Below, piece by piece: positions 4,345 to 63,351 of a stretch of 64,000 nt of DNA. Both the position numbers and the translations under genes were made by a program. The first letter of the stretch is position 1; the number at the start of each line of letters is the position of its first letter. Under the pieces are notes generated by a model. That model was not told where the DNA came from. It saw only the letters and a program-made list of their open reading frames with translations, and made no database searches. Source of the DNA: an uncultured Pseudomonadota bacterium (lineage in GTDB: Bacteria > Pseudomonadota > Alphaproteobacteria > RF32 > CAG-239); contig CASGEB010000001.1 in the NCBI GenBank assembly GCA_949300375.1, positions 12,468 to 76,467 of the forward strand, written 5' to 3'.

Positions 4345-6210
4345 ATGAAATCAGGAAGAAACCTCATTATCTGGCTGGCAATATTCGTGGCGCTGTCGTT
4401 GGTTATGAATATTTTCAACGCCTCTCAGCAGATAAAAGATTATAACAAAGTCGCATTCTCCGACTTCATGAACTATGCCGATAACAAACAATTGTCTGAT
4501 ATTATGGTAGAAGGGCCGAATATTACCGGAACAACCACAAACGGCGAAAAATTTACGACTTATGCCCCTTATGATCCGACAATGATTGAAACCATCCGCA
4601 AAAGCGGCGCAAAGGTCGAGGCAAAACCGGTCGACACGTCGGCCAACACCTTTTGGGGCGTCCTGATTTCATGGTTTCCGATGATTCTGCTTATCGGCGT
4701 CTGGATTTTCTTTATGCGTCAGGCCAACTCCGGCAATAACAAAGCCATGAGTTTCGGAAAATCGCGCGCCCGGCTGATTGAGAACACCAAAAAAGTAACT
4801 TTTGCCGATGTTGCCGGCTGTGATGAGGCCAAAGAAGAACTGGAAGAAGTCATTGAGTTTTTAAAAGAACCGCAGAAATTTCAGCGTCTGGGAGGAAAAA
4901 TCCCCAAAGGCGTATTGCTCGTCGGCCCTCCGGGAACAGGTAAAACCCTGTTGGCAAAAGCCGTTGCCGGTGAAGCAAATGTGCCGTTTTTCTCAATCTC
5001 CGGTTCTGACTTTGTCGAAATGTTTGTCGGCGTCGGCGCTTCCCGCGTGCGTGATATGTTCCAACAGGCCAAAAAGAACTCTCCCTGCCTGCTCTTTATT
5101 GATGAGATTGATGCCGTCGGCCGCCACCGCGGAGCCGGACTGGGCGGTGGAAACGATGAACGCGAGCAAACGTTAAACCAGCTGCTGGTTGAAATGGACG
5201 GTTTTGAAGCCAACGAAAACGTCATCGTCATTGCAGCCACCAACCGGCCGGATGTCTTGGATCCTGCCTTGCTGCGTCCCGGACGATTTGACCGCCAGGT
5301 AACGGTAACCAATCCTGACAAAAAAGGGCGGGAAGAAATCCTGAACGTTCATGTCAAAAAAGTTCCTCTTGCCAAAGACGTCAATATTTCGGTCATTGCC
5401 CGCGGAACGCCGGGTTTCTCCGGTGCCGATCTGGCAAATCTGGTCAACGAGGCAGCTCTGCTGGCTGCCCGCAAAAACAAGCGGAAAGTAACCTCCAAAG
5501 ATTTTGACGAGGCCAAAGACAAGGTTTTGATGGGCGCCGAAAAGAAATCAATGGCTATGGACGAACAGGAGAAAAAACTGACAGCCTACCACGAGGCCGG
5601 GCATGCCATTTGTTCGCTGTATGTTAAAGAAACCGACCCAATTCATAAAGCCACAATTATCCCGCGCGGCCGGGCTTTAGGTATGGTTCAGCAATTGCCG
5701 GAAAAAGACCAGTATTCTTATTCCCGGCTGAAGATGCTCTCCCGTTTGGTCATCATGATGGGAGGACGTGTCGCCGAGGAGCTAAAGTTCGGCCACAATG
5801 CCGTTACTTCCGGAGCATCTTCCGACATTGCCGCAGCCACCAATCTGGCACGTTCAATGGTAACGGAATGGGGAATGAGCGACCTGCTCGGCCCGGTTCT
5901 TTACGCCGAAAACTCCGGCGAGGTTTTCTTGGGAAAATCCGTTACCCAAAATAAAAACATCAGCGAAGAAACTGCCCGGCTGGTCGATTCCGAAATCAAA
6001 CGTATGGTAACGGAAGGATACGAAAAAGCCAAAAAGCTTCTTCAAAATAAAGAAAAAGAGTGGGAACTGCTGGCTCAGGCATTAATAGAGTACGAGACGC
6101 TTACTGGTGATGAAATCAAAAAAGTCATTGCCGGAGAAAAGCTGGATAAAAGCGACGAAGGGCCGGTAAGCGAAGAAAAACGAACTCATTCTTCAGTTCC
6201 GGAAGTTTAA
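4345..6210 (+). CDS. ftsH: ATP-dependent zinc metalloprotease FtsH
   Basis: 621 aa with two N-terminal TM segments, Walker A GPPGTGKT, the AAA second region of homology, and the zinc motif HEAGHA. Confidence 0.97.
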
Positions 6211-19560: not shown

Positions 19561-19796
19561 AACCACAAAACACAGTTTTATAAAAGGCTGGTGCTACGCA
19601 GTTACTTTCCAACAACGTGTACCAAACAGATACACGAGGAAAAAAGAAACAAGCATGACCGATCTTAAAAAATTAAAACTTGATATATGAGGCAGATAAT
19701 AAGAAAAGGAAATTTTGGCGACAGGAGTGTATAAAAACATACATGACTTAGCCAAAATTTCCTTTTCTGTATTAGGTGCCCATAGAGCAAGTTTTA
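19561..19796. repeat. Nested-palindrome element locus 1: degenerate A-type unit plus intact B-type unit
   Basis: The B unit has lower stem aagaaaaggaaattttggc/gccaaaatttccttttct and upper stem tgtat/ataca. The right end gcaagttttaaa contains the fabG stop codon. Confidence 0.8.
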
Positions 19797-22089: not shown

Positions 22090-24372
22090 ATGGCAAGAAA
22101 AAAGAAAAAAGAAAAAAACATTATCATCAGAATTCTGTGGCGCATTTTCGGAGCGGCATTAATTGTTTTTCCGCTTTACGCTTTTCTCAGCTGTATTTTC
22201 TGCCACGTCGGCGATAATTCCTTTTTGTCCGCCTCTGCCGCGCCGGTCAAAAACCTGTTGGGAAGCGGCGGGGCAAACACAGCCGCGTTTATTTTCAATT
22301 ACTTCGGCATTGCGCTTTTTCCGTTTCTCTGCGCAATAATGGCCTGGGGCTGGCAGCTGGCGCGCGCCAAAGAACTCGAATTTCCGGCTTACCGGACTTT
22401 CTCTCTCCTTTTCGGCATTTTGAGCTTTTCCATGTTTTTAAGCCTGCTGCCTGATTTTACCGGCGTTTTCCGCCTCGGCGGAACCGTCGGCGCGCTTTTT
22501 GCCGGCCATATTCTGACACTTTTCAAAAAGCTTTATGTCTACGGCTATGCCGATTGGATTTTCGGCACGATTTTGCTGCTGTTCTCCATCTTTTTCTTCA
22601 ACTTTGCCGCCGGCATCACCTGCCGCAGCTGGCTTGCTTTCGGCCGCCGTCTGTCCGGCTGGATTAAAATCGGCGCTTTATGGACAGCCGCCGCCTTCCG
22701 CTACATTTTCAGCTTTGCGCCGCGCCGCCGCGAGGAAAAGCTTAAAGAAACGGCAAAAGAAAAAACGCCGCGCCGTAAAAAAGAAAAAACTGCCAAAAAC
22801 AAAGAAGATAAAAAAGAACCGGGCTTTGAAAAATCAAAACCTTATGCTCCGGAACCGGCCGGCGATGATTATCAGTATCCAAGTGTGGAAATCCTTTCAA
22901 AGCCAAAAGAAAAGAACACCCACAACGTCAGCCAGAAAGAGCTGGACAAGATTGCGCTTGATTTGGAAAACGTTTTGCAGGAATTCGGCATTAACGGCAA
23001 AATCGTCAAAATCCGCCCCGGACCGGTCGTTACTCTCTATGAACTGGAACCCGCCCCCGGCACCAAAACCGCCCGCGTTATCAGTCTGGCGGACGATATT
23101 GCCCGCTCAATGAGCGCCGTTTCCGTCCGTATTGCCGTTGTTCCGGGCAGCAACACCATCGGTATTGAAATGCCGAACCCGACCCGTGAGATTGTTTATT
23201 TAAGAGAATTGCTTGACAGTGAGGAATTCAAAAACGCCAAAGGGGCATTAACCGTTACGCTCGGCAAAGACATCGGCGGCAAAAATGTTTATGCCGACCT
23301 GGCCAAAATGCCGCACTTGCTGGTAGCCGGAACAACCGGTTCCGGAAAATCCGTCGGCGTCAATACCATGATTTTATCGCTGCTCTACAAAATGCGTCCG
23401 GACGAATGCAAACTCATTATGATTGACCCGAAAATGCTCGAATTTTCATTATACAATGGAATTCCGCACTTGTTAACGCCGGTGATTACCGATCCGGCCA
23501 AAGCCGTTATCGGATTAAAATGGGCGGTTAAGGAAATGGAAGACCGCTACCGCGCCATGGCTCAGCTGAATGTCCGCAATATCTCCGGCTATAACCAGAA
23601 ACTACGCGAACTCAAAGCCAGCGGACAAAAAATCAAACGGACGATACAAACCGGATTCGATACCGAAACCGGAGCTCCGATTTATGAAGAACAAGACTTA
23701 GACCTCACGCCGCTGCCATATATTGTTATCATCGTTGATGAAATGGCCGACCTGATGCTCGTTGCCGGCAAAGAGGTTGAAGCCGCCATCCAGCGCCTGG
23801 CCCAGATGGCGCGTGCTGCCGGACTGCATTTGATTATGTCCACCCAGCGGCCGTCCGTCGACGTCATCACCGGCACGATTAAAGCCAACTTCCCAACCCG
23901 CATCAGTTTTCAGGTAACGTCCAAAATCGACAGCCGCACCATTTTGGGCGAACAAGGCGCGGAACAACTGCTCGGCATGGGCGATATGCTCTATATGCCG
24001 GCCGGCCAGCGTCCGTTGCGCGTTCACGCCGGATTCGTCAAAGACAGCGAAATTGAAAGCATCGTCGAATTCTTAAAAGCGCAAAAAGCGCCGGAATACG
24101 TTGAAGGCGTAACCGAAGGACAACTGAACGAAAAAGACAGCGGCGCCGTCTTTGACAAAGGCAGTTTCGGCGGAGGTTCCGGCGGCGGAGAAGACGATTT
24201 GTACGCGCAGGCCGTTGCCATCGTCAAAAACGATAAAAAAACCTCCATCAGTTACGTTCAGCGCCGTCTGAGAATTGGATATAACAAAGCGGCGACCCTG
24301 ATTGAGCGTATGGAAGAAGAAGGCATTATCAGCGCCCCCGACCACGCCGGCAAACGGGAAATTCTGGAATAA
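22090..24372 (+). CDS. ftsK: DNA translocase FtsK
   Basis: 760 aa with N-terminal TM segments, a K/E-rich linker, Walker A GTTGSGKS and a C-terminal winged-helix gamma domain (ISYVQRRLRIGYNKAA). Confidence 0.95.
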   Translation: MARKKKKEKNIIIRILWRIFGAALIVFPLYAFLSCIFCHVGDNSFLSASAAPVKNLLGSGGANTAAFIFNYFGIALFPFLCAIMAWGWQLARAKELEFPAYRTFSLLFGILSFSMFLSLLPDFTGVFRLGGTVGALFAGHILTLFKKLYVYGYADWIFGTILLLFSIFFFNFAAGITCRSWLAFGRRLSGWIKIGALWTAAAFRYIFSFAPRRREEKLKETAKEKTPRRKKEKTAKNKEDKKEPGFEKSKPYAPEPAGDDYQYPSVEILSKPKEKNTHNVSQKELDKIALDLENVLQEFGINGKIVKIRPGPVVTLYELEPAPGTKTARVISLADDIARSMSAVSVRIAVVPGSNTIGIEMPNPTREIVYLRELLDSEEFKNAKGALTVTLGKDIGGKNVYADLAKMPHLLVAGTTGSGKSVGVNTMILSLLYKMRPDECKLIMIDPKMLEFSLYNGIPHLLTPVITDPAKAVIGLKWAVKEMEDRYRAMAQLNVRNISGYNQKLRELKASGQKIKRTIQTGFDTETGAPIYEEQDLDLTPLPYIVIIVDEMADLMLVAGKEVEAAIQRLAQMARAAGLHLIMSTQRPSVDVITGTIKANFPTRISFQVTSKIDSRTILGEQGAEQLLGMGDMLYMPAGQRPLRVHAGFVKDSEIESIVEFLKAQKAPEYVEGVTEGQLNEKDSGAVFDKGSFGGGSGGGEDDLYAQAVAIVKNDKKTSISYVQRRLRIGYNKAATLIERMEEEGIISAPDHAGKREILE

Positions 24373-25378: not shown

Positions 25379-25484
25379 CTGCTTTTCTCTTCGGCTAAAA
25401 TTACCACAAAAACATAAAAACACCTTAAATAAACCCTTTTTATTTATACATGCCTTAAACATCTCTACAAGTGAAAAACACCGG

Positions 25485-25754
25485 CAACCGCAGAACGCAG
25501 TTTTTACCAAAAATTACGAAGAATGAGGCTAGTAATAAGAAAAAACCTTTAAGGCGACAGGAGTGTACGTAGTGGTACATGATTAGCCTTAAGAACTTTC
25601 TATACTAAACACCCTTTCAAGCCGCTGTAAAACTGCGGTATGTGAGTCAGATAATAAGAAAAAAGAATTTTAGCGACAGGAGTGTATAAAGACATACATG
25701 ACTTAGCTAAAATTCTTTTTTCTGTATTAGGTGACCGCAGAGCGCGGTTTTACC
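25485..25754. repeat. Nested-palindrome element locus 2: array of a terminal fragment, an A-type unit and a B-type unit
   Basis: The A unit is at 25521-25610 (stem partly decayed, upper stem tgtac/gtaca). The B unit is at 25647-25754 (stem agaaaaaagaattttagc/gctaaaattcttttttct, upper stem tgtat/ataca). It ends 1 nt before the hppA stop. Confidence 0.85.
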
Positions 25755-28166
25755 CTATATTTTCATCTTGTAGAAAGACCGATATACAAACACCAATCCC
25801 AACAATAAGAAGAAAATACCCAGGCCGAGAGATACACATCTCGGAGCCGCTACGGCCATCTCAACCGCCAGCAAACCGAACAACGTCGTAAATTTGATAA
25901 TCGGGTTGAGAGCAACGGAAGACGTGTCTTTGAACGGATCACCGACCGTATCGCCGACAACCGTCGCATCATGCAGCGGCGTGCCTTTCTCGTTCAAATC
26001 GACCTCAACCACTTTCTTGGCGTTATCCCATGCGCCGCCGGCATTCGCCATAAACAAAGCCTGGAACAAACCAAATACGGCAATTGAAATCAGATAGCTT
26101 GCAAACAGATTTGCGTCAAAGCAGGCAAAAGCAATCGTAAAGGAAAAGATTACGATAAAGATGTTAAACATACCCTTTTGCGCATAAATCGTGCAAATCT
26201 TGACCACTTCCTGAGAATCTTTCTGCGAAGCAGCTTTCTTACCGCTCAGTTTGATATGTTTTTTAATAAAATCAACCGCACGATAAGCACCGGTCGAAAC
26301 CGCCTGCATTGAAGCGCCGGAGAACCAGTAAATCACCGCACCGCCGAGAATAAGGCCGAACAGGACTTGCGGATCCAGCAGATTCAGTTTCAGGTTAAGC
26401 AGCAGGATAATCGAGAAAATCATCGTCGTTGCGCCGATAACGGCCGTACCGATAAGCACCGGCTTGGCCGTTGCTTTAAAGGTATTTCCGGCGCCGTCAT
26501 TAGCCTCCAGCAAATGTTTGCCTTGCTCAAAATTCGGTTTAAAGCCGTATTTTTTCTCAATATCTTTATCAACGTTCTTAATACCTTCAATCTGAGAAAG
26601 TTCAAAAACAGACTGGGCATTGTCGGTTACCGGACCATAGCTGTCTACGGCAATCGTAACCGGCCCCATGCCAAGCATACCGAAAGCCACCAGACCAAAA
26701 GCAAACACTGTCGGATAAACCATAAAGCTGTCCAAACCGGATTGAGCGGTAAAGAATGCAACCACCATCAGGCCGACCATAACGGCACCTTGCCAGAAAG
26801 CCGAGAAATTACCGGCAACAATACCGGAAATAATATTCAGCGAAGCACCGGCCTCACGGCTGGATTTGACAATTTCCTGAACATGCTGGGATTTTGACGA
26901 AGTAAAGATTTTGGTAAATTCCGGAATCAAAGCCGCAGCCAAAGTACCGCAGCTGATAATCAGAGAAAGTCTCCACCACAAATCGGGGCTGAGATCGCCG
27001 ATCATCACATAAGAAACGCCGAAAGTAACGGCAATCGAGATAATGGAAGTAAACCAAATCAGGCTGGTCAATGGTTTTTCAAAATCAAAAAATTCCTTTT
27101 TGCCGTAAAGGGCGCAAGAAACTTTGTTATTGAGCCAGTAAGAAACTAATGAAGTAATAATCATCAGGAGTCTCATGGCAAAAATCCAGACAATCAGACG
27201 AGCCTGAAAATCAATGCCGTTCGGCATCAGGGTCAAATCGCCGTTCGGGGCATACATCATACCGGCGCCCAAAACGATAAAGCTGATAAGAGCCACGCCG
27301 GTAACGCCGTAAGTTTCAAAACCATCGGCAGTCGGGCCGACGGAGTCGCCGGCATTATCACCGGTACAATCGGCAATCACGCCCGGATTGCGGGCATCAT
27401 CTTCACCGATTTTGAAAATAATTTTCATCAGGTCTGCGCCAATATCGGCGATTTTGGTAAAAATACCGCCGCAAATACGCAAAGCCGCCGCCCCTAAAGA
27501 TTCACCGATGGCAAATCCGATAAAGCAGGCGCCGGCGCTTTCTTTCGGCACAAACAACAAAATGGCAATCATCATAATCAGTTCAACGCAAATCAGCAAA
27601 ACGCCGATAGACATACCGGAACGCAGCGGCAGGCTCATAACCTTGTAAGCCTTGGCTTCCAGAGAAGAAAATGCTGTGCGGGCATTGGCATAATTGTTAA
27701 TGCGCATACCAAACCAGGCCACTGAATAAGAACCGAGAATACCGAGAACCGACCAGGAAAGGATTGTCAGCACTTTCGGCATCGGCGTTGCGTTGAGATA
27801 ATAGAAATAGTAGAAAATACAAACCGCAATAAACAATTCCAGAAGCAAAAGCAGTTTAGCTTGTTGTTTCATATAGGTTTTGCAGGTCGCATAAATCAGT
27901 TCCGATACTTTCAGCATGGCTTCGTGAGCAGGCATTTTTTTGATTTTAAGAAATTCGTACAAACCAAAAAGCATACCAAGGACGCAAATGCTCATGCCGT
28001 AAAACAAAATCTGCGATCCGAGGACGGAATAACCGAAGATATTGTATTCCACATCCAAAGACGGAATTTTGAGGTCGATTTCTGAAGCATACGCCCCTTG
28101 AACCACCCCGACCAGCGCCAGCATCAGAGCGCCGGCGAAAGTCTTAAATTTTTTCAAACCAAACAT
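25755..28166 (-). CDS. hppA: Membrane-bound proton/sodium-translocating pyrophosphatase
   Basis: Multi-TM protein with GDNAGD- and DTVGDPFKDT-type motifs and GNTFKAT. The start chosen is MFGLKK (28166, SD aaggaaaa). The ORF-track start at 28307 adds 47 non-membrane residues and is unlikely. Confidence 0.9.
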   Translation of the reverse strand: MFGLKKFKTFAGALMLALVGVVQGAYASEIDLKIPSLDVEYNIFGYSVLGSQILFYGMSICVLGMLFGLYEFLKIKKMPAHEAMLKVSELIYATCKTYMKQQAKLLLLLELFIAVCIFYYFYYLNATPMPKVLTILSWSVLGILGSYSVAWFGMRINNYANARTAFSSLEAKAYKVMSLPLRSGMSIGVLLICVELIMMIAILLFVPKESAGACFIGFAIGESLGAAALRICGGIFTKIADIGADLMKIIFKIGEDDARNPGVIADCTGDNAGDSVGPTADGFETYGVTGVALISFIVLGAGMMYAPNGDLTLMPNGIDFQARLIVWIFAMRLLMIITSLVSYWLNNKVSCALYGKKEFFDFEKPLTSLIWFTSIISIAVTFGVSYVMIGDLSPDLWWRLSLIISCGTLAAALIPEFTKIFTSSKSQHVQEIVKSSREAGASLNIISGIVAGNFSAFWQGAVMVGLMVVAFFTAQSGLDSFMVYPTVFAFGLVAFGMLGMGPVTIAVDSYGPVTDNAQSVFELSQIEGIKNVDKDIEKKYGFKPNFEQGKHLLEANDGAGNTFKATAKPVLIGTAVIGATTMIFSIILLLNLKLNLLDPQVLFGLILGGAVIYWFSGASMQAVSTGAYRAVDFIKKHIKLSGKKAASQKDSQEVVKICTIYAQKGMFNIFIVIFSFTIAFACFDANLFASYLISIAVFGLFQALFMANAGGAWDNAKKVVEVDLNEKGTPLHDATVVGDTVGDPFKDTSSVALNPIIKFTTLFGLLAVEMAVAAPRCVSLGLGIFFLLLGLVFVYRSFYKMKI

Positions 28167-38426: not shown

Positions 38427-38506
38427 TCAAATCCGCCGGGACTCAACACAAACAAAAACCACCCGCTAAAGGGGTGGCATTTGTTTATGGCGTACCCGGA
38501 GGGATT
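38427..38506. repeat. Direct repeat copy 1 (duplicate of the tRNA-Arg 3' end plus its terminator)
   Basis: 80 nt, 79/80 identical to 38610-38689. It contains tggcgtacccggagggatt (the last 19 nt of the tRNA, minus strand) and the hairpin ccaccc/gggtgg. Confidence 0.95.
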
Positions 38507-38609: not shown

Positions 38610-38689
38610 TCAAATCCACCGGGACTCAACACAAACAAAAACCACCCGCTAAAGGGGTGGCATTTGTTTATGGCGTACCCGGAGGGATT
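38610..38689. repeat. Direct repeat copy 2 (overlaps the genuine tRNA-Arg 3' end and its terminator)
   Basis: See copy 1; the period is 183 nt. Confidence 0.95.
38630..38661 (-). terminator. Rho-independent terminator of tRNA-Arg
   Basis: On the minus strand the stem is ccaccc/gggtgg, followed by tttttgtttgt, 10 nt after the CCA. Confidence 0.75.
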
Positions 38690-38747
38690 CGAACCCACGA
38701 CCCTCGGCGTCGGAGGCCGATACTCTATCCAACTGAGCTACGGGTAC
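38671..38747 (-). tRNA. tRNA-Arg (anticodon CCG), CCA encoded
   Basis: Manual cloverleaf: acceptor gtacccg/cgggtac, D arm gctc..gagt, anticodon stem tcggc/gccga with loop cuCCGac, T loop ttcgaat. There is one U-U mismatch in the T stem. Confidence 0.9.
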
Positions 38748-39352: not shown

Positions 39353-40828
39353 ATGGAAAACATCGATACCGCAAAACTGCCTCAGAATATTGAAGCCGAA
39401 CAAGCCCTGCTCGGCGCTTTGCTTGCCAACAACAAAGCCTTTGAAAAAGTTTCCGAATTTTTAAGGCCGGAACATTTTGCCGATCCTGTTCATGCCAAAA
39501 TTTATGACATTATTTCCAAGCTCATCAGCAAAGGTCATATCGCCGACGTTATTACGCTGAAAAATTACTTTGAACAGGAAGGCTTGCTGGACGAGGTCGG
39601 CGGCTACAAATACCTGATACAACTGGCCGACAGTTCCTCTCCGCTGACCAATGCCGAATATTACGCCCAGTTTATTTATGACAAATACCTGCGCCGCGAA
39701 CTCATCAATACCGGCTTTGAAATAGTAAATGAAGCTGCCAAAGAAGACCTTGACACCAATGCGTTTGAACAAATAGAAAACGCTGAGAAAAAACTGTTTG
39801 AGCTGTCCAATCAGGGGGACACCCGCGGCGGCTTCATTGATTTTTCCGAAGCTCTGAACAACTCACTGCACTTGATTGCGGAAGCCTATGAAAAAGACGG
39901 AAAAATTTCCGGACTTCCAACCTCCCTGGATGCTCTTGACTATATGATCGGCGGCCTGAACAAATCAGACCTGATAATCATCGCCGGGCGTCCGGCTATG
40001 GGCAAAACGGCTTTGGCCACAAACATCGCTTATAATGTCGCCGAATATATGGCCAACAATAAAAATATGGATCCCAAAATGCGCGGCGTTGCTTTTTTCT
40101 CGCTGGAAATGTCCGCTGACCAGCTGGCCAGCCGTATTCTTTCCACCGTCACCCAGACCAACGGCAAAAAAATGCGCAACGGCGAACTCGACAAAGCCGA
40201 ATTTATGCGGATTGCCGCCGCCGTACAGGAACTGGAACAAATTCCGCTTTATATTGACGACACCCCGGGCCTAAACATCAACACCATCCGAACGCGCGCC
40301 CGCCGACTGCGCCGCAACAAAGGACTCGGAGCAATCGTCATAGACTATATCCAGCTGATTACCGGTTCCGGCAGCAAAAAGAATGAAGGCAACCGCGTCC
40401 AGGAACTTTCGGAAATCTCCCGCGGCTTAAAAATTCTCGCCAAAGAATTAAATGTGCCGGTTATTGCCCTTTCGCAGTTAAACCGCGGAGTCGAACAGCG
40501 TGACGACAAACGCCCCGTTATGTCCGACCTGCGTGAATCCGGATCCATTGAACAGGACGCCGATATTGTTATGTTTGTCTACCGCGAAAATTATTACATT
40601 CAAAACGAAGAACCCAAACAAAAGGCCGGAGAAACGCCTGAACATTTCCAAAAACGCCAGGAAGAATGGGAAGAACGCGTCCGCCGCACCAAAAATATTG
40701 GTGAAGTCATCATCGGCAAACAGCGCCACGGTTCAACCGGAACCGTTCAGCTTTTCTGGAACGGAGAATTTGCCCAGTTCGGCAACCTGGCCAAAGATGA
40801 ATACCTGCCCGAACAGGCACGGGATTAA
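39353..40828 (+). CDS. dnaB: Replicative DNA helicase DnaB
   Basis: 491 aa with the N-terminal motif NIEAEQALLGALL and Walker A GRPAMGKT. RecA-fold motifs are present. No intein is visible. Confidence 0.96.
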   Translation: MENIDTAKLPQNIEAEQALLGALLANNKAFEKVSEFLRPEHFADPVHAKIYDIISKLISKGHIADVITLKNYFEQEGLLDEVGGYKYLIQLADSSSPLTNAEYYAQFIYDKYLRRELINTGFEIVNEAAKEDLDTNAFEQIENAEKKLFELSNQGDTRGGFIDFSEALNNSLHLIAEAYEKDGKISGLPTSLDALDYMIGGLNKSDLIIIAGRPAMGKTALATNIAYNVAEYMANNKNMDPKMRGVAFFSLEMSADQLASRILSTVTQTNGKKMRNGELDKAEFMRIAAAVQELEQIPLYIDDTPGLNINTIRTRARRLRRNKGLGAIVIDYIQLITGSGSKKNEGNRVQELSEISRGLKILAKELNVPVIALSQLNRGVEQRDDKRPVMSDLRESGSIEQDADIVMFVYRENYYIQNEEPKQKAGETPEHFQKRQEEWEERVRRTKNIGEVIIGKQRHGSTGTVQLFWNGEFAQFGNLAKDEYLPEQARD

Positions 40829-46322: not shown

Positions 46323-46422
46323 TAATTGCTTGCTTTGCAGCAGAATATAGATTAAATATGTTATAAAATATTTTTTATTGCAAAAAACTGAAAGACAAAG
46401 TCAAAAGGAGCTGTTGCGCATT

Positions 46423-48105
46423 ATGAAAGAAGAAACCAGAGGTCTGTTCCTCGCCGTTATATTATCCGTTATTGCCATTTTCGTTACCAACTATCTGTTC
46501 CCGACAACGCCGGCAGCCCCGCAAAACAATGCGGAGCCGGAAATCATCGCAAATGAAAACCCGGCAAATTCACAAAACGAAGATAAAATCATAATTGATG
46601 AAAAGCCCCTGACCACGGCTGAAGCCATCGCCTCTGAAAAACGCATAAAATTTTCCAATGACGTCGTTCACGGCAGCATCCGCCTGAAAGGCGCCCGTTT
46701 TGATGAGCTTTATCTTTCCAAATACAAAGTCGGACTGGAAAAAGACAGTCCCGACGTCGAACTTTTATCCCCGGCACGGACTATTGAACCCTATTATGCA
46801 GAGTTCGGCTGGCTTTCCAATGACCGGAGTTTGAAATTGCCGGACAACACGACCGAATGGCTGGCCAAAACCAGGGAACTGACACCGGAAAAACCGCTTG
46901 TGTTGGAATATAACAACGGACAGGGTCTGCGTTTTATCCGCAAAATCAGCCTCGATAAAAACTATATGTTTAATATTGAACAGTCTGTTGAAAACAACAC
47001 CGGAAAAGAAATCACCCTTTATCCTTACGGGCTGATCAGCCGGACGATTGATGAAAACAAAAACGCTCAAAACGCTGTTGTCCACGAGGGAATGCTCGGC
47101 GTCATCGATTCATCGCTGAAAGAAATCAAATACTCATCATTAAAAAAGCAAGGAGAAAAGGAAGAATTCAAAACCAGCGGCGGCTGGGTCGGATTCGGCG
47201 ACCGTTACTGGTTCAGTTCGCTGGTCTTCGGCAACAATCAAAACGCCAAAGTCAAATTTGGCAAAACCGCGGACAATGTTTATCAGGTTGACTACCTCGG
47301 CGACGCTGCCAGCATCGCTCCGGGCTCCATCGGAACCCAGAATATTCGTTTTTATTCCGGTGCCAAAGAAATCAAACTGCTGGATAACTACACCAAAAAA
47401 TATAATATCGACAAATTCGATTTGGCAGTTGATTTTGGCTGGTACTACTTCCTGACCAAACCATTTTTCTACATTCTGGACTTTTTATATCATATTATCG
47501 GCAATATGGGATGGGCGATTTTGCTCTTTGCCGCCCTGCTTCGGCTGCTGATGTACCCGATTGCCAACAAATCTTACGAGAGTATGTCTAAAATGAAAAA
47601 AGTTCAGCCCAAAATGCTGGAAATTCAAGAAAGATATAAAGATGACAAGGTAAAAATGCAGCAGGAAGTTATGAATCTGTACCGCAAAGAAAAAATCAAC
47701 CCTGCTGCCGGATGCTTGCCGGTTCTTATCCAAATTCCGGTATTCTTCTCTCTGTACAAAGTGTTGAACATCTCTATCGAAATCCGCCACGCACCATTCA
47801 TCGGCTGGATTAAAGATCTTTCCGCGCCGGATCCTCTGACAATTTCGGTTTGGTCGCACCTTCCTGTTCCCGGAATCCTGGACATCGGCATTTGGCCGAT
47901 TTTGATGGGCGTCAGCATGTATATCCAGCAAAAACTGAATCCCGCACCGGCCAATAAAGACCAGGCGCGCGTTTTTGCTCTGCTGCCGCTAATCTTTACC
48001 TTTATGCTCGGACATTTTGCTTCAGGTTTAGTCATATACTGGACATTGAGCAATCTGCTTTCCATTATTCAGCAAAAAGCCATTATGCGCAAAGTCGGAG
48101 TCTGA
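46423..48105 (+). CDS. yidC: Membrane protein insertase YidC
   Basis: It has a large periplasmic domain and then the 60-kDa insertase core (YPIANKSYESMSKMKK.QP....IQE.YK.D). The start is the ATG at 46423, or TTG at 46378 in the ORF track. Confidence 0.93.
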   Translation: MKEETRGLFLAVILSVIAIFVTNYLFPTTPAAPQNNAEPEIIANENPANSQNEDKIIIDEKPLTTAEAIASEKRIKFSNDVVHGSIRLKGARFDELYLSKYKVGLEKDSPDVELLSPARTIEPYYAEFGWLSNDRSLKLPDNTTEWLAKTRELTPEKPLVLEYNNGQGLRFIRKISLDKNYMFNIEQSVENNTGKEITLYPYGLISRTIDENKNAQNAVVHEGMLGVIDSSLKEIKYSSLKKQGEKEEFKTSGGWVGFGDRYWFSSLVFGNNQNAKVKFGKTADNVYQVDYLGDAASIAPGSIGTQNIRFYSGAKEIKLLDNYTKKYNIDKFDLAVDFGWYYFLTKPFFYILDFLYHIIGNMGWAILLFAALLRLLMYPIANKSYESMSKMKKVQPKMLEIQERYKDDKVKMQQEVMNLYRKEKINPAAGCLPVLIQIPVFFSLYKVLNISIEIRHAPFIGWIKDLSAPDPLTISVWSHLPVPGILDIGIWPILMGVSMYIQQKLNPAPANKDQARVFALLPLIFTFMLGHFASGLVIYWTLSNLLSIIQQKAIMRKVGV

Positions 48106-49036: not shown

Positions 49037-49078
49037 AAAAAACAGGATTCCGGCTTAAAAACCGCAATCCTGTTTTTT
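49037..49078. terminator. Bidirectional hairpin terminator
   Basis: Stem aaaaaacaggatt/aatcctgtttttt with an inner cgg/ccg pairing, between convergent genes. Confidence 0.8.
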
Positions 49079-49775
49079 ATGCCATTTTTTTATAAAAATC
49101 TTTTCTTTCTCTTCGGCTCATTGACCACAAATTTCCCAATCCGTTTATCGGCTGAACTTCATATTTTGATTCAAAATCAAACCCCCGGCTCAAAAACAGA
49201 CTGGTTGTTTTGGTATAACAGTTCATTGGGCAAAAACCGTAAAAATCCACCTGAATCAACCCGGTTTTCCGAAGAACGGCTATTGCCTTTTGATACTCCT
49301 GGCTGGTATTAACCCTGTCGCTGTCATCAAGAATAATCATCCCGCCTTCAGCCAGCTTTTGCACCGCCGCCGCACAACATTCCGCACGTCTTTTACCGTC
49401 GACCACAATAACATCAAATAAATCTTCTTGCTCAAAAATGGCATTTTCATAAATCTCGCCCTCATCCCGCCAGCGAACCTCCAGGTTAGATTCCGTCATT
49501 TCTGCCTGCCATTTCTCAAACCATTTCGGATTATCTTCAATACTAATGACCTTTTCCGCTCTTGCTGCCCAAAAATGCGAGGAAGAACCGCAGCCGTACT
49601 CAAAAATCTTCCTGTTCCGATAATCAAACTGCGACAAATATTCAATCGCCGGAAAAGTGTACCAGGGAATCGGCTTTCCGTCCCGATCGGCACAAATTTT
49701 TTCATCAATAGATTTTTCCAAAGCAAAATCTTTCTGCAGCATTTCAATCGCTTTGGCAAACTTCTCGCTGTACAT
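49077..49775 (-). CDS. Putative class I SAM-dependent methyltransferase
   Basis: 232 aa with a Rossmann-type motif IFEYGCGSSSHFWA..KVISIEDN and a later VVDGKRR...GGMIILDD. The family assignment is tentative. Confidence 0.5.
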   Translation of the reverse strand: MYSEKFAKAIEMLQKDFALEKSIDEKICADRDGKPIPWYTFPAIEYLSQFDYRNRKIFEYGCGSSSHFWAARAEKVISIEDNPKWFEKWQAEMTESNLEVRWRDEGEIYENAIFEQEDLFDVIVVDGKRRAECCAAAVQKLAEGGMIILDDSDRVNTSQEYQKAIAVLRKTGLIQVDFYGFCPMNCYTKTTSLFLSRGFDFESKYEVQPINGLGNLWSMSRRERKDFYKKMA

Positions 49776-50204: not shown

Positions 50205-51170
50205 ATGCCTCTGAGCAATTTCCGCCGCATTCTTATCCTCATATTTGTTCTTGTGCTTATTATCATAAATGCCAAATTGTACAACAAATATCATACATTT
50301 TTTTTCGAACCCCAACCGCTTTTCTGGTGCAGCAGCACTCTTCCCTTAGATAAATTGACCGACTGCATCAACAATCAATATAAAGATTCCCGTTACGCTA
50401 AAAAAAGCTCGGAATTACTTCAACAGAGGCCTTCAACAAAAGAAGCAATGTCCATATCGCCGATAACATTAACTAACACATATACGGAAATCTCCGACTT
50501 TAAAAATTTGAAAAAAGAAAACAACTTCGGCATCATCAACAACGGTTTTGCCGGCACTCTTACCCGCACGGATCAATATGAAAAATTAAAGCTGCATCTT
50601 CCCCAAACGGAATTTCCGTTTTTTTCACTGCAAAAAATCACCTTTCCTGATTCAAAAAATAAATGCCAGCCGGAAATTGAAAATATTTTATCACCGGTTG
50701 CCGTTTCTTACTGGAAATATCCTTTCTTCAGACCTATGTTCTCTTCTGATTTGCTCATTACTAAAAATCAAAAAGGCTACAAGCTCTACGCCGCCGGTTA
50801 CGAGGTCGTTCCGCTGAAAGACAAAAAAGGGTTCTTTACAGTCTCCATAATGAATTTCTGCCCGCAAAAAGACCGCTTTACTTACTGCGGTACCAATTAC
50901 ATCCGCTTTATCGATACCTATCCGCATTTCTCCGACACTATCAAACAGGCAGACATTCCGGAAAAATATAAAAAACAAAAAGACTTCTATGAAGGCTGCC
51001 CGCCTTATCCGCAAAAATTTGCAATATCCTCCGCCCCGGAGTACCCGGAACAAATTCTTTATCTGAGCGCTGACCGGAGAAAAAATCCGTCAAAACTCTA
51101 CGTTAAACTTTATAACAGAATTTTTGCCATCGACCTCCGAACAACAAACAAAAAAGGAAAAACAAAATGA
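50205..51170 (+). CDS. Hypothetical protein with an N-terminal membrane anchor
   Basis: 321 aa with an SD aaaggaga upstream and no recognisable motif. It overlaps the next ORF by 4 nt (ATGA). Confidence 0.45.
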   Translation: MPLSNFRRILILIFVLVLIIINAKLYNKYHTFFFEPQPLFWCSSTLPLDKLTDCINNQYKDSRYAKKSSELLQQRPSTKEAMSISPITLTNTYTEISDFKNLKKENNFGIINNGFAGTLTRTDQYEKLKLHLPQTEFPFFSLQKITFPDSKNKCQPEIENILSPVAVSYWKYPFFRPMFSSDLLITKNQKGYKLYAAGYEVVPLKDKKGFFTVSIMNFCPQKDRFTYCGTNYIRFIDTYPHFSDTIKQADIPEKYKKQKDFYEGCPPYPQKFAISSAPEYPEQILYLSADRRKNPSKLYVKLYNRIFAIDLRTTNKKGKTK

Positions 51171-52240
51171 CTGACATAACGCCCGAGGATTTTCTGCCCG
51201 AAAATTTTGAACAATTTCAAAACCGGATCCCCGGACTAAAAATCTCCGACCGATTAGCTGCCGGCAATCCGCTGAAAAAACTGTTACATCATATCGAAAA
51301 TAAACAAAACAACGGAATTCTTTTCAAATTAACATATCTTGCCTGGATTGCCTATCTGACACTTTTTGCCGGATCTGCCTTATATCAAAAACACCCTTCG
51401 GCACCGGCAATGATGATTATGTTATTTTCCGTATATACCTTTGCAGTCATTACTTGGAAAAAATCTCCGATTACCCCTTACTGCCTGCCTCAGATAACCT
51501 TATTTTTCAAAACTTATTCCGTAATAAACCGCGCCCTAAAACAAGCAAAAGAACAAAACACCGGCTCCAAAATCTCCTTCAGAAAAAAAATAAAACAAAC
51601 TTTTTTCAACAGGTTCTTCATCATTGCCAACATCGGAAGAATTGAACGGCTTTCCACGGAAGAAGAAAAGCGTCTTCTAAAAATCAGAAAATTTGTCGAC
51701 CAGGTATTCATTGACCGTTTTATCCTTTTTCTGGGATTTTTTGCTTACATAATTCTTTATTGTCAAAATGCACTTTATCTCAGCAATCCGGGAATAGACC
51801 ATAAAAACGCCATTATTAATTTCATAAACGACGTCTTCTTTGCCTCATCGTCCCTCAGCAGTCAGGCTTTTCTAAATTTTATGTTTCTCAACATTATTTG
51901 TATTATGTTTTTAATATACGGCGGAAACATTTTCGCCCCGTATCAGTGGCAAAAGATACGCAAATTCATAAAAAACAAGCCCTGCGGAAAATTCAAAAAA
52001 TTTATTTTCCGCCCGATAATAAAAATAATCTATTTCCTGTTGATGCTTTATATATTCATAACTTTATGCTATGGAATTCCGGTATTTTATTCGGATTTTG
52101 AACTTTCGGGAAAATGGATTCCCGTTCTGGCCGTTTTTGGAGCCTGTGCTATGTTCTTCCATTTTTCATCAATCGCCGCAATCACATTCATCCGGCAGCT
52201 GGCTTTATTTTTTAACCGTTTTTGCCGAAAAGAAAACTAA
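51167..52240 (+). CDS. Hypothetical polytopic membrane protein
   Basis: 357 aa with multiple hydrophobic helices. It is translationally coupled to the previous ORF. Confidence 0.45.
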   Translation: MTDITPEDFLPENFEQFQNRIPGLKISDRLAAGNPLKKLLHHIENKQNNGILFKLTYLAWIAYLTLFAGSALYQKHPSAPAMMIMLFSVYTFAVITWKKSPITPYCLPQITLFFKTYSVINRALKQAKEQNTGSKISFRKKIKQTFFNRFFIIANIGRIERLSTEEEKRLLKIRKFVDQVFIDRFILFLGFFAYIILYCQNALYLSNPGIDHKNAIINFINDVFFASSSLSSQAFLNFMFLNIICIMFLIYGGNIFAPYQWQKIRKFIKNKPCGKFKKFIFRPIIKIIYFLLMLYIFITLCYGIPVFYSDFELSGKWIPVLAVFGACAMFFHFSSIAAITFIRQLALFFNRFCRKEN

Positions 52241-53871: not shown

Positions 53872-54002
53872 ATTCGTCCTTTTATAAAAAATTCACTCAC
53901 AGCAAATTTAACCTCATTTCCGCCGCAAGTCCATAATTTTTTAACGGAAAAACCCCAAAATTACATTAATCCGAACGACAAAAAAGTTTTCCACTTCCAC
54001 CT

Positions 54003-54143
54003 CAGGCCGCTGTAAAAAACGCGGAGAATGAGGCTAGTAATAAGAAAAAAACTTTAAGGCGACAGGCGCGTACATAGACGTACGTAACTTAGCCTTAAAG
54101 TTTTTTTCTGTATTAATAGACCATTATACGCGTTTTTTACGCA
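54003..54143. repeat. Nested-palindrome element locus 3: compact A-type archetype (about 140 bp)
   Basis: The arms are gccgctgtaaaaaacgcggagaatgaggctagtaataagaaaaaaactttaaggc and gccttaaagtttttttctgtattaatagaccattatacgcgttttttacgcaac. The central stem is cgtac/gtacg. The right arm contains the last two codons and the stop of leuS. Confidence 0.85.
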
Positions 54144-61925: not shown

Positions 61926-62000
61926 CGGTAAAACCTTTCGCGTACCCCAAACCACCAAGAACAATAGCAACAAATATAATACTTTTCCACACTAAGCGTC

Positions 62001-62250
62001 CCTCAGACCGCTGTAAAAAACGCGATATAAGCGCTAAGCAAAAACAACCGCTACTCCGGTTGTTTTTGTCTGCAAGCTCTTTGTAACATCTTGGCAAGCA
62101 AGGAAAGCGTTAGCAACCGCAGCGCGCCTAGATGCCTAAGTCAGATAATAAGAAAAAAGAATTTTAGCGACAGGAGTGTATAAAAACATACATGACTTAG
62201 CTAAAATTCTTTTTTCTGTATTAGGTGGCCACAGAGCGCAGTTTTTACCC
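62001..62250. repeat. Nested-palindrome element locus 4: left end, a 110-bp insert and a B-type unit
   Basis: The left end ctcagaccgctgtaaaaaacgcg is nearly identical to locus 3. The insert carries the hairpin aaaaacaaccg/cggttgttttt. The B unit is almost identical to 25647-25754. The right end gcgcagtttttac contains the stop of the LptG-like gene. Confidence 0.85.
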
Positions 62251-63351
62251 GTCCTCGAGATGGAGAAGAACCGACACGCTAATCATCATCACAATCAGCG
62301 CCGGCGTCCAAACCGCCAAAAAACCCGGAATAATATTATTAATTCCGAAAGCATAAATAACTTGCGACATAAAATAGACGATAAAGCCGGTAGAAAGTCC
62401 GCCGACAATCAGATACATCACGCCGCCGCGCCGGTTATTCGGACGCAGGGCAAAAACCGCCGCCACCAAAACCATGGAGCAAAGCAGAAAAGGCGAGGCC
62501 AGCAGGGATAAATAACGCAGCCTGTGTTTCTGCGCCGAAAAACCCGACATCTCATAAAAATGGATTGTATCCGGCAAATCCCAAAAAGAGATAGATTCCG
62601 GCTCAACAAAATTTTCTTTTATCCGTTCTATTGTCAACGTTGTTTTATACATAAGCCTGTCCTGTGATACGGTTGGCTTTCCAGGCTCATAAATTTTAAC
62701 ATTAATCAACTCAAACGCATCATCCTTCAAATTGGCGGCATAAGCCTCAATCCGGCGCAAATTCTGCGATTCTCTGCTCATCTCCAAAATCGTTACGCCG
62801 CGCAAAAACAATGTATTATGTTCCTGCCGGACAGACTTTGCCTGCAAATAAAGAAATTTATCGGCATTGATTGCCTCGCGCAGCCACAACCCTTTTTCAG
62901 AAAAAAGAACAGCTTTCGGATTGCGTGTTTTAAAACGATAATTCAGCGTCTCGTACAATTCATTCATTCGGGCGGAAATCGGATTAACCACCGTAACATT
63001 GACCACGCCGACCAAAAATGTTGCCAAAAGAACCGGCGCCAAAAAACCCCAGATAGACACGCCCGCGCTCCGGATAATCACAAATTCGTTGCTTTTACTG
63101 AGTTTCCAAAACGTAATCATAGCCGCAATCATCATCACAAACGGGAAAACCATTTCCACGGTTTTCGGCAGTTTGGTAAAAGCCATCTCCATAATCAGGC
63201 CAAAAGATGCGTCGTCCCGGCCGGAAGCCCGGCGCAGCAGTTCAACAACTTCAAACAGCATAACAATTCCGATTACCATCAGCAAAACGGCAAGAAAATT
63301 GTAAACAATCTGTTTAGTCAGATATCTTCCAAGAATAGACTGCGGGTTCAT
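62245..63351 (-). CDS. lptG: LPS export ABC transporter permease (LptF/LptG family, LptG-like)
   Basis: 368 aa with YjgP/YjgQ topology: three TM helices, a periplasmic beta-jellyroll region, then three TM helices. The N-terminus is ILGRYLTKQI...FEVVELLRRA. Confidence 0.75.
   Translation of the reverse strand: MNPQSILGRYLTKQIVYNFLAVLLMVIGIVMLFEVVELLRRASGRDDASFGLIMEMAFTKLPKTVEMVFPFVMMIAAMITFWKLSKSNEFVIIRSAGVSIWGFLAPVLLATFLVGVVNVTVVNPISARMNELYETLNYRFKTRNPKAVLFSEKGLWLREAINADKFLYLQAKSVRQEHNTLFLRGVTILEMSRESQNLRRIEAYAANLKDDAFELINVKIYEPGKPTVSQDRLMYKTTLTIERIKENFVEPESISFWDLPDTIHFYEMSGFSAQKHRLRYLSLLASPFLLCSMVLVAAVFALRPNNRRGGVMYLIVGGLSTGFIVYFMSQVIYAFGINNIIPGFLAVWTPALIVMMISVSVLLHLEDG

Follow-up and report, generated by a model that had tools for sequence, protein, structure and literature searches.

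Repetitive extragenic palindromic (REP) sequences and other palindromes of this type are abundant, and both their mode of spread and the reason for their placement are still debated. The GTAG ends of REPs often supply TAG stop codons (PMC3733652), many REPs of Escherichia coli lie no more than 15 nt from a stop (PMC12306157), and models based on REP-associated tyrosine transposases (RAYTs) have been proposed for the variation of arrays of bacterial interspersed mosaic elements, or BIMEs (PMC3333891). Insertion sequences of the IS200/IS605 group act on the lagging-strand template, a strand-specific, replication-coupled orientation being the signature of their 'peel-and-paste' movement (PMC5027513, PMC6006769). 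The present analysis concerns a hairpin-forming repeat element in a stretch of 64,000 nt (the window) from an uncultured bacterium of CAG-239 (RF32, Alphaproteobacteria); labels of the form L### denote loci outside the window. The element very probably represents a family of DNA repeats obeying strict rules of placement with respect to stop codons and strand. The fuller statement, that it is an undescribed modular family of interspersed hairpin repeats, REP/BIME-like, found in uncultured gut Alphaproteobacteria and moved by a single-strand mechanism, is advanced tentatively, as somewhat short of probable, and the single-strand, HUH-type mechanism taken by itself is considered possible with greater reserve. 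What is new here is the polarity of all arrays relative to GC skew and the evidence of current exchange at the stop codon.

A pattern scan for the element over 185,579 species genomes gave 116 loci, about half of which were chance matches in unrelated taxa. The true loci all came from metagenome-assembled genomes (MAGs) of uncultured gut Alphaproteobacteria of human, mouse, chicken and ruminant origin, labelled 'Azospirillum sp.', 'Alphaproteobacteria' or Candidatus Scatocola, and the window is about 92% identical to two element-bearing MAG loci. A hidden Markov model of the central hairpin (B unit) detected 83 copies grouped in 56 arrays, every array being intergenic and 3' of a gene. An abutted open reading frame (ORF) could be called in 53 of the 56, and grouping by C-terminal sequence placed these in 22 abutted-gene families; a CysK-like gene at L173, a locus obtained without the element as bait, added a 23rd. 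By the look of their C-termini the abutted products include SecA-, PNPase-, IF-2-, TolB-, Pgk-, ThyA-, FtsH-, YchF- and KdsB-like proteins; the Pfam check covered LptG, LeuS, FabG and the H+-PPase, the others being judged from their C-termini. Divergent members or remnants were also seen in human-gut metagenome contigs (L117-L119, 2604-2729; L150, after 2604; L173, 355-492), again flush with the stops of lptG and of the CysK-like gene. The LptG encoded there is only 73-78% identical to that of the window, which makes the family older and wider than the window's genus. A viral source was excluded by a scan of viral contigs with the element pattern, in which coding sequence and a tRNA each gave a single match, both by chance. 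At the gathering threshold Rfam 15 recognized nothing in the whole window but tRNA-Arg, and an E-value scan of 61950-62300 gave only generic miRNA-like hairpin matches of at most 27 bits.

Five B-unit hairpins occur in the window at four loci, all on the + strand (19690-19775, 25515-25610, 25645-25730, 54031-54115 and 62141-62228). The B unit is AT-rich and about 90 nt long, with a core GCGACAGGAGTGTA present in four exact copies and one with two mismatches, again all on the + strand. Each copy is flanked by a left (L) motif CCGCTG-TAAAAAACGCG and a right (R) motif CGCG-GTTTTTA-C, L being the reverse complement of R. The complete unit, of the scheme TAAAAAC-GCG...B hairpin...CGC-GTTTTTA, is a single palindrome of about 125 nt which folds at -52 to -60 kcal/mol; a further extension, lambda, of 13-20 nt is present on one side only. 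The array beside hppA consists of two tandem units and the remnant of a third (R-B'-L-B-R). Minus-strand ORFs end at the arrays at 19794-96 (TAA), 25755-57 (TAG), 54137-39 (TAA) and 62245-47 (TAA), and were assigned by Pfam to SDR/FabG-like, H+-PPase, LeuS and LptF/LptG proteins, respectively; the left neighbours are GrpE (+), an ORF of no assigned family (+), LptE (-) and a TPR protein (+). The parts of the arrays are as follows.

62001 to 62013, + strand: lambda extension cctcagaccgctg, C/T-rich, always before the distal TAAAA end and conserved as CC(C)YTTCARGCCRCTG at unrelated loci.
62014 to 62027, + strand: terminal inverted repeat of the distal side (L), taaaaaacgcgata; it is reverse-complementary to R, and the two ends covary between subfamilies.
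62026 to 62138, + strand: 113-bp 'insert' module with a bidirectional terminator-like hairpin at 62041-62071; nhmmer found 26 copies in 22 loci, all co-oriented with B.
62141 to 62228, + strand: B hairpin of the lptG copy, with the invariant blocks ATAATAAGAAAA, GCGACAGG, ACTTAGC and TTCTGTATTA and a variable central stem.
62231 to 62247, + strand: proximal (R) terminal inverted repeat acagagcgcagttttta, whose final TTA (62245-62247) is the complement of the lptF/G stop.
54000 to 54139, + strand: one complete lambda-L-B-R unit between leuS and lptE, with the last three positions (54137-54139) complementary to the leuS TAA.
25628 to 25754, + strand: stop-proximal unit of the hppA array, with the TAG at 25755-25757.
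25509 to 25627, + strand: distal B' unit of the hppA array, with a right end of type 2 (lambda).
25484 to 25508, + strand: R-type remnant gcaaccgcagaacgcagtttttacc of the hppA array, the leftover of a third unit that is intact in L026.
19674 to 19796, + strand: fabG unit (taaaacttg...caagtttta), with its last three positions (19794-19796) complementary to the TAA of fabG.
19585 to 19663, + strand: E-module remnant beside the fabG unit, from a companion repeat family.
61926 to 61945, + strand: L-type motif in degenerate form, cGGTAAAACCTTTCGCG, on the far side of the lptG array and 1 nt past the stop of the convergent TPR gene.

The position orthologous to this last motif holds lambda, L and B' in L030 and L108. 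The original prediction had described an extra insert of about 110 bp in the lptG copy; it is not unique to that copy but a recurrent module, and the hairpin aaaaacaaccg/cggttgttttt predicted within it is indeed present. Complete units, here called alpha units, are joined into arrays with at least three other module types, namely B'/D units, the E-module and the terminator-bearing insert. The E-module, of about 105 nt, has inverted repeats TAAAAAGTTTGATAAGAGCTTGT / TAAAAAGTTTG...CAAACTTTTTA and an inner hairpin cgtgtac...gtacacg, shares the TAAAA end and was seen in L018, L092, L089, L004, L087 and L195; in other genomes and strains it lies between the stop codon and the alpha unit. A mini-ORF with a Shine-Dalgarno sequence, as which GACAGGAGTG...ATGACTTAG could be read, was discarded, the second subfamily having AGGCG and GTA in place of AGGAG and ATG.

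The junction with the abutted gene is exact. Read on the sense strand, it consists of the last codon followed by TAA-AA(A)(A)-C/G. The terminal TAAAA and the stop codon share their T in 43 of the 53 arrays; in five others, mostly with TAG stops, the T of the element is found 4-5 nt downstream. Abutment is seen in nearly every array whatever its right end, be it an alpha unit, a D-type unit or the unrelated E-module. It had been proposed that the TAA within the motif is the stop of fabG, leuS and lptG, and this is so, the TTA closing the terminal ...GTTTT(T)TA in each case, with a degenerate end at fabG (gcaagttttaaa). The spacer of 3 nt given for hppA has to be corrected to 1 nt, since the last base of TTTTAC is 25753 and the first of the TAG is 25755. 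One orientation at gene 3' ends holds at the four window loci, as claimed, and extends to 22-23 unrelated genes. That four of four is unlikely by chance was borne out by an estimate of about 3e-7, based on the 2.3% of window states (intergenic position x orientation) that put such an end 0-5 nt from a stop read into it.

The census of 22-23 abutted families likewise supports the preference for gene 3' ends as a target, one of the two explanations offered by the original prediction. TAA sites, named there as the alternative target, are only partly right. TAA by itself cannot serve as the target: it makes up about 70% of all window stops, and neither an upstream consensus nor a target-site duplication exists. 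No consistent duplication, whether of TA, TAA, TTTTA or a longer sequence, was found at about 20 single-unit loci or at the E-module insertion of L195, and flanking of the unit by TA fails at L074.

The proposal that the element supplies the stop is correct in one sense and incorrect in another. The unit of L074 reads TGAAAATGCG...CGCATTTTCA, in which TGA is the stop and the change is present in both arms; that of L022 reads TAAGACAG...CTGTCTTA, the terminal triplet being likewise changed in both arms. The stop triplet thus belongs physically to the inverted repeat of the element. Its position, however, is native in element-free relatives. A metagenome scan with LptG gave 67 loci of 63-78% identity in which the protein ends ...LEDG without exception, the stop being TAA, TAG or TGA at one codon whether the element is present or not. 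Creation of the stop by the element is therefore contradicted: the LptG C-terminus is kept in relatives without it, and stops pre-existing unchanged were what had been named beforehand as speaking against the idea. HppA also keeps its native C-terminus, with TAG in the window and TAA at the same codon in L026 and L039, and FabG ends in GGMAMI in all alleles.

The second rule of placement concerns the strand. The + strand of the window has a GC skew of -0.115 throughout, and the skew at third codon positions (GC3 skew), taken in the coding sense of each gene, is -0.27 for + genes and +0.22 for - genes. Since these values are opposite on the two strands, the asymmetry belongs to the chromosome strand, as replication-associated skew does, and coding-strand composition is ruled out as the source of the correlation. 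In each of the 56 arrays the strand that reads L-B-R was the one rich in C within the flanking sequence, so that the abutted gene always lies on the G-rich strand. The GC3 skew agreed: co-oriented genes gave negative values in 41 of 43 loci, and opposite genes gave positive ones in 46 of 50. By the established rule the G-rich strand would be the leading one and would also serve as the lagging-strand template.

With the abutted genes set aside, about 54% of the genes in the loci lie on the G-rich strand, and by chance 22 of 22 families would do so with a probability of about 1e-6. The window genes for IF-2, FtsH, FtsK, YidC, DnaB and GrpE, which are on the C-rich strand, have ordinary terminators and no elements; flush elements are found on IF-2 (L015 and L109) and FtsH (L080) where these genes lie on the G-rich strand. 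A clade in which lptG is on the C-rich strand has no element there. If gene orientation alone mattered, about half of the elements would be expected behind C-rich-strand genes, and if the strand alone mattered, gene starts would be the right-hand neighbours in more than half of the cases. Neither is seen, and both conditions must therefore apply. The common orientation relative to the gene, pointed out in the original prediction, accordingly holds, but the gene by itself is insufficient to explain it, orientation being fixed against GC skew as well. A strand bias of essential genes was considered as a cause and is unlikely; the loci hold about equal numbers of genes per strand, and the six C-rich-strand genes of the window just listed lack elements. 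The C-rich + strand of the window carries 34 of its 58 genes (for example 1628-4105, 4345-6210, 22090-24372, 39353-40828 and 46378-48105).

The structure of the hairpin was deduced from an alignment of 45 distinct units, which yielded a consensus of 33 pairs with 97.8% of cells paired. Compensatory double changes occur at 16 of the 33 pairs, in 237 cells compared to 74±8 in shuffles and at most 60 when the partners were slid. At well-covarying pairs one-sided G-U intermediates number 0-2 per pair, against 6-26 double changes, and the sole wobble is a conserved G·T on the + strand. Counts of G-U versus A-C were rejected as a test for the RNA strand, as the sporadic mismatches, this G·T aside, favour neither strand (7 vs 12). 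The outer inverted repeat covaries too (aaaacgcg/cgcgtttt, aaaacttg/caagtttt, aaaattccg/cgggatttt and aaaagccg/cggctttt). The central stem varies freely yet stays perfectly complementary, and the invariant blocks ATAATAAGAAAA, GCGACAGG, ACTTAGC and TTCTGTATTA border asymmetric internal loops. Of 51 units, 46 fold better on the + strand, which is C-rich and antisense to the abutted gene, when RNA parameters are used (by a mean of 5.2 kcal/mol), and 40 do so with DNA parameters. Given the weaker fold of the sense strand, a structure in the sense mRNA is unlikely as the primary object of selection. Invariant blocks along asymmetric loops are the pattern of protein recognition or of upkeep at the DNA level, not of selection on a sense-strand mRNA, and template switching at quasi-palindromes could possibly be the source of covariation restricted to Watson-Crick pairs. 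A hairpin followed by T5-6 (CGCG + T5-6) is present in sequence form on both strands; a terminator and promoter consensus scan was uninformative on stems of this length.

Turnover between strains is evident in the orthologous leuS-lptE spacers, which contain one unit (the window and L068), the insert and one unit of another subtype (L084), at least three units (L091) or four (L042), the left flank and the ...TTTTTAC/gene junction remaining constant throughout. Conspecific strains were retrieved by exact-protein look-ups with LptE and FabG. In L184 and L187, which encode an identical LptE, the central stem of the alpha unit is wholly different from that of the window allele. Three alleles accompany an identical FabG: the window has the alpha unit only, L195 has an E-module between the stop and the alpha unit, and in L193 and L194 the stop is TAG and the unit behind it is of the GTTTTCAGCCG type. 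A switch from TAA to TAG thus accompanies the change of module, and the polymorphic block starts at the third base of the stop codon. Exchange at the DNA level is ongoing and is aimed at the stop-codon boundary. Gene content also differs between strains with identical LptE or 232-aa proteins, as seen on comparison of window positions 50205-52240 with L184 and L196; between holA and the ORF for the 232-aa protein, two + strand genes of the window are swapped for a single 68-aa DUF378 gene. The contigs L187-L189, L191 and L192 break inside repeat arrays.

It is tempting to speculate on how such a family is maintained. It would be spread and exchanged as DNA rather than selected as an mRNA structure, most likely by way of folded single-stranded hairpin intermediates formed on one template strand at the replication fork, and the catalyst would be a putative structure-specific enzyme of the RAYT or IS200-IS605 (HUH-Y1) kind or a comparable one. 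The terminal TAAAA may fuse with the TAA-plus-A-tract which opens many of the stop-flush bidirectional terminators of this genome; such a fusion would explain why the position of the stop is preserved and why reading frames are undamaged. Termination or 3'-end protection by the hairpin and U-tract would then probably be a side effect of secondary importance.

Several observations weigh against this proposal. Replication direction was taken from GC skew alone, in data that hold no origin or terminus, and many essential genes lie on the apparent lagging strand of the window. Many of the arrays are orthologous to each other, so that the independent events number about 23 and not 56. Apart from the stop, arrays with an abutted ORF share no conserved tetra- or pentanucleotide ahead of the insertion point, and, as an insertion enzyme cannot read the frame, the in-frame coincidence with stops can be accounted for only if stop-flush terminators are targeted or selection is strong. 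Of the ordinary terminators in the window, only about half are themselves flush with a stop, compared to more than 85% of the arrays. Neither a transposase nor a recombinase came to light in the sequence examined: no HUH...Y motif was matched by a regular expression in the 116 loci of the first scan (about 0.9 Mb, about half of it alphaproteobacterial), which is a weak test, as this set excluded the window and the metagenome loci and covered a small part of any one genome. The unit, at about 125 nt, is 3-5 times longer than a REP of 20-40 nt, and it is one long palindrome with covarying terminal inverted repeats in place of the two subterminal hairpins of IS200/IS605 elements.

The proximity of ordinary terminators to stops deserves a description of its own. 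The bidirectional terminators of the genes at 49077, 28697, 37022, 6210 and 41326 begin 0-4 nt past the stop as TAA-AAAA-stem, as is often the case in this genome; that which follows 49077-49775 reads gcaTAAAAAACAGGATT...AATCCTGTTTTTT, and the spacer it occupies has a called length of 323 nt in the window and in one other contig, lengths only being compared in this search for a strain-level empty site; two further look-ups by exact protein gave no record. The explanation that survives best beside the preferred one starts from here. The units could be modules selected by the host as long bidirectional intrinsic terminators or 3'-end stabilisers, spread by recombination or template switching and not by transposition. 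A compact genome would place terminators flush with stops, and the complete unit, TAAAAAAC-stem...stem-GTTTTTTA, shares its design with the ordinary terminators found 0-4 nt past stops in the window. The insert module bears a canonical bidirectional terminator, the abutted genes are all housekeeping genes, and modules are replaced in situ with their boundaries kept. A function tied to the transcript does not, however, predict the restriction to the G-rich strand, as C-rich-strand genes of the window use ordinary terminators, and the fold of the sense strand is the weaker one. A strong terminator would be unexpected within the leuS-lptE operon, where the leuS copy is situated; multi-unit arrays, truncated units and churn at the strain level look selfish rather than tuned, and neither the conserved asymmetric loops nor the lambda tail plays a part in termination. 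This explanation is rather unlikely, and a role as terminator or 3' untranslated region (UTR) stabiliser, the second suggestion of the original prediction, is not favoured as the primary cause on the sequence evidence.

A stronger form of the preferred single-strand mechanism, regarded as unlikely, would make the element a new replication-coupled single-strand hairpin element, with insertion and exchange aimed at the stop/terminator boundary of genes co-directional with the fork. In such a 'gene-end cassette' system, which would be neither REP/RAYT nor IS200/IS605 nor integron, 3' modules would be swapped behind essential genes, and the target might be provided by exposure of single-stranded DNA or of an R-loop at ribosome release.

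The lack of target-site duplications bears directly on the next explanation, by which the units are classical miniature inverted-repeat transposable elements (MITEs) moved in trans by a DDE transposase with an IS630/Tc1-like TA or an IS5-like TAA/TTA target, purifying selection sparing those insertions that regenerate a stop. Terminal inverted repeats (TAAAAAC.../...GTTTTTA) are clearly present and their ends can be read as flanked by TA, which would suit such elements, as would the size, copy number and nesting of the modules, and TAA is the commonest stop. Besides the missing duplication, sought at about 20 single-unit loci, the two arms change together in the terminal triplet (TGA/TCA in L074, and L022), as they would in an inverted repeat and would not in a duplicated target. 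The one-sided lambda extension breaks the symmetry of a DDE-type MITE, and the 56/56 polarity is not expected of DDE elements. Stop-overlapping TA or TAA sites are a minority of the intergenic ones, and no related transposase gene was found in the sequence examined. Movement as a MITE is quite unlikely in view of these data.

The conserved geometry of the hairpin also recalls structure-specific recombination sites, either attC or an analogue of the CTX/dif hairpin, at which a tyrosine recombinase would recognise the folded single strand and exchange modules at gene ends. Sites of the attC type abut or overlap the stop codons of cassettes, and chromosomal integrons are polarised with respect to replication. 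The hairpin likewise has a conserved paired base, with AAC...GTT in many copies, together with a spacer that is unpaired, a G that bulges out and a tip that varies but remains self-complementary; it does not match the RYYYAAC/GTTRRRY cores, though, and several subfamilies lack AAC/GTT (AAAAT/ATTTT, AAAAG/CTTTT). The units are dispersed behind essential housekeeping genes and not assembled in cassette arrays beside intI and attI, and no integrase was seen in the sequence examined, all of which leaves this explanation very improbable.

Finally, a structured non-coding RNA gene, read from the + (C-rich) strand and so antisense to the abutted gene at its 3' end, can be dismissed as most improbable: the better fold of the + strand with its one conserved G·U, the strong covariation and a sigma70-like -35/-10 in the left arm (19673-19700, with an invariant GATAAT) would agree with it, but the hundreds of compensatory changes include virtually no G-U intermediates, an RNA gene would not typically form tandem arrays and truncated copies, come and go between strains or reach dozens of copies per genome, no Rfam family matched beyond tRNA at the gathering threshold and otherwise weak generic hairpins, and the promoter-like sequence is a consensus match only. 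That sequence (TTAAAA-16 nt-GATAAT, + strand) faces into the hairpin and, again as a match to consensus only, is made up of the unit's L end together with its invariant (G/A)ATAATAAG, with an equivalent position in other units.

A separate feature of the window is a direct repeat of 80 nt, 99% identical, at 38427-38506 and 38610-38689, the copies being 183 bp apart. It holds the 3' 19 nt of tRNA-Arg(CCG) (38671-38747, minus strand) and the adjacent terminator hairpin, and looks like an att-type partial duplication of the tRNA left by an integrated or excised element.

In a field where spread and placement are disputed, the family described here offers clean rules, that is a nucleotide-exact start at native stops, a single polarity and visible exchange between strains. 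If the polarity reflects replication, it would be a natural system for the study of single-stranded hairpin recognition and movement at the fork, and would also show how a mobile repeat can target gene ends without damage. The repeats fragment short-read metagenome assemblies of gut Alphaproteobacteria, change the 3' UTR of essential genes and their stop codon (TAA to TAG) from strain to strain, and could serve as strain markers.

The comparison with known systems can be made from the most distant to the closest. Bidirectional intrinsic terminators have in common with the element an A-tract, a stem-loop and a T-tract, and often begin at the stop in the window genome; the stem of the element differs in being AT-rich and about 50 bp long, and the element has a conserved core unrelated to termination and is repeated, mobile and restricted to one strand. 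The Neisseria NIME/Correia, pneumococcal BOX and mycobacterial MIRU repeats are similarly modular, expand in tandem and occupy transcribed intergenic regions, but show no sequence relationship to it. MIRUs follow the orientation of transcription and overlap the flanking stop and start codons; to our knowledge none of these families has been reported with a strict polarity relative to strand asymmetry or a family-wide, nucleotide-exact overlap with stops. Inverted repeats are present as in classical DDE-type MITEs, without the target duplication of the latter. Integron attC sites resemble the element in the priority of structure over sequence, a conserved base, extrahelical bases, a variable self-complementary tip, a start at or overlapping the stop of the preceding ORF and a uniform polarity; they differ in that here there is no cassette array, the upstream genes are housekeeping genes, the cores are A/T runs and no intI was seen.

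A closer likeness is to IS200/IS605 elements and their non-autonomous derivatives, the palindrome-associated transposable elements (PATEs). The strand orientation correlates with replication (its direction here being inferred from skew), no target is duplicated, the ends are asymmetric and insertion may occur beside a fixed short sequence; recognition of a single-stranded hairpin, established for those elements, would apply here by analogy. The constant flank of the present element is only the in-frame stop or TAA, which is itself part of the inverted repeat, and no TnpA or TnpB was found in the sequence examined.

REP and BIME sequences (REPINs) share the largest number of features with the element. 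The overlap with stops is nearly total in the element, more than 85% of the present arrays being stop-flush, compared to about 11-50% of E. coli REPs within 15 nt of a stop; its orientation follows GC skew without exception, and no report of so strict a skew polarity was found for REPs in the papers searched. At its tail the element has (G/T)TAAAA(A)C, with the variants TGAAAA, TAAGAC and GTTTTC, instead of GTAG or CGTC, the internal loops are conserved around a hypervariable central stem, and no RAYT was found by the HUH...Y expression in the 116 loci, weak as that test is. Both, on the other hand, are high-copy extragenic imperfect palindromes, located mostly downstream of ORFs between convergent or tandem genes. 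Both form mosaic arrays with end motifs alternating in orientation, as in the R-B'-L-B-R order at hppA and the palindromic ...TTTTA/TAAAA... junctions; in both the composition of arrays varies between strains and the terminal motif can double as a stop codon. Among known systems REP/BIME is thus the closest precedent for the element.

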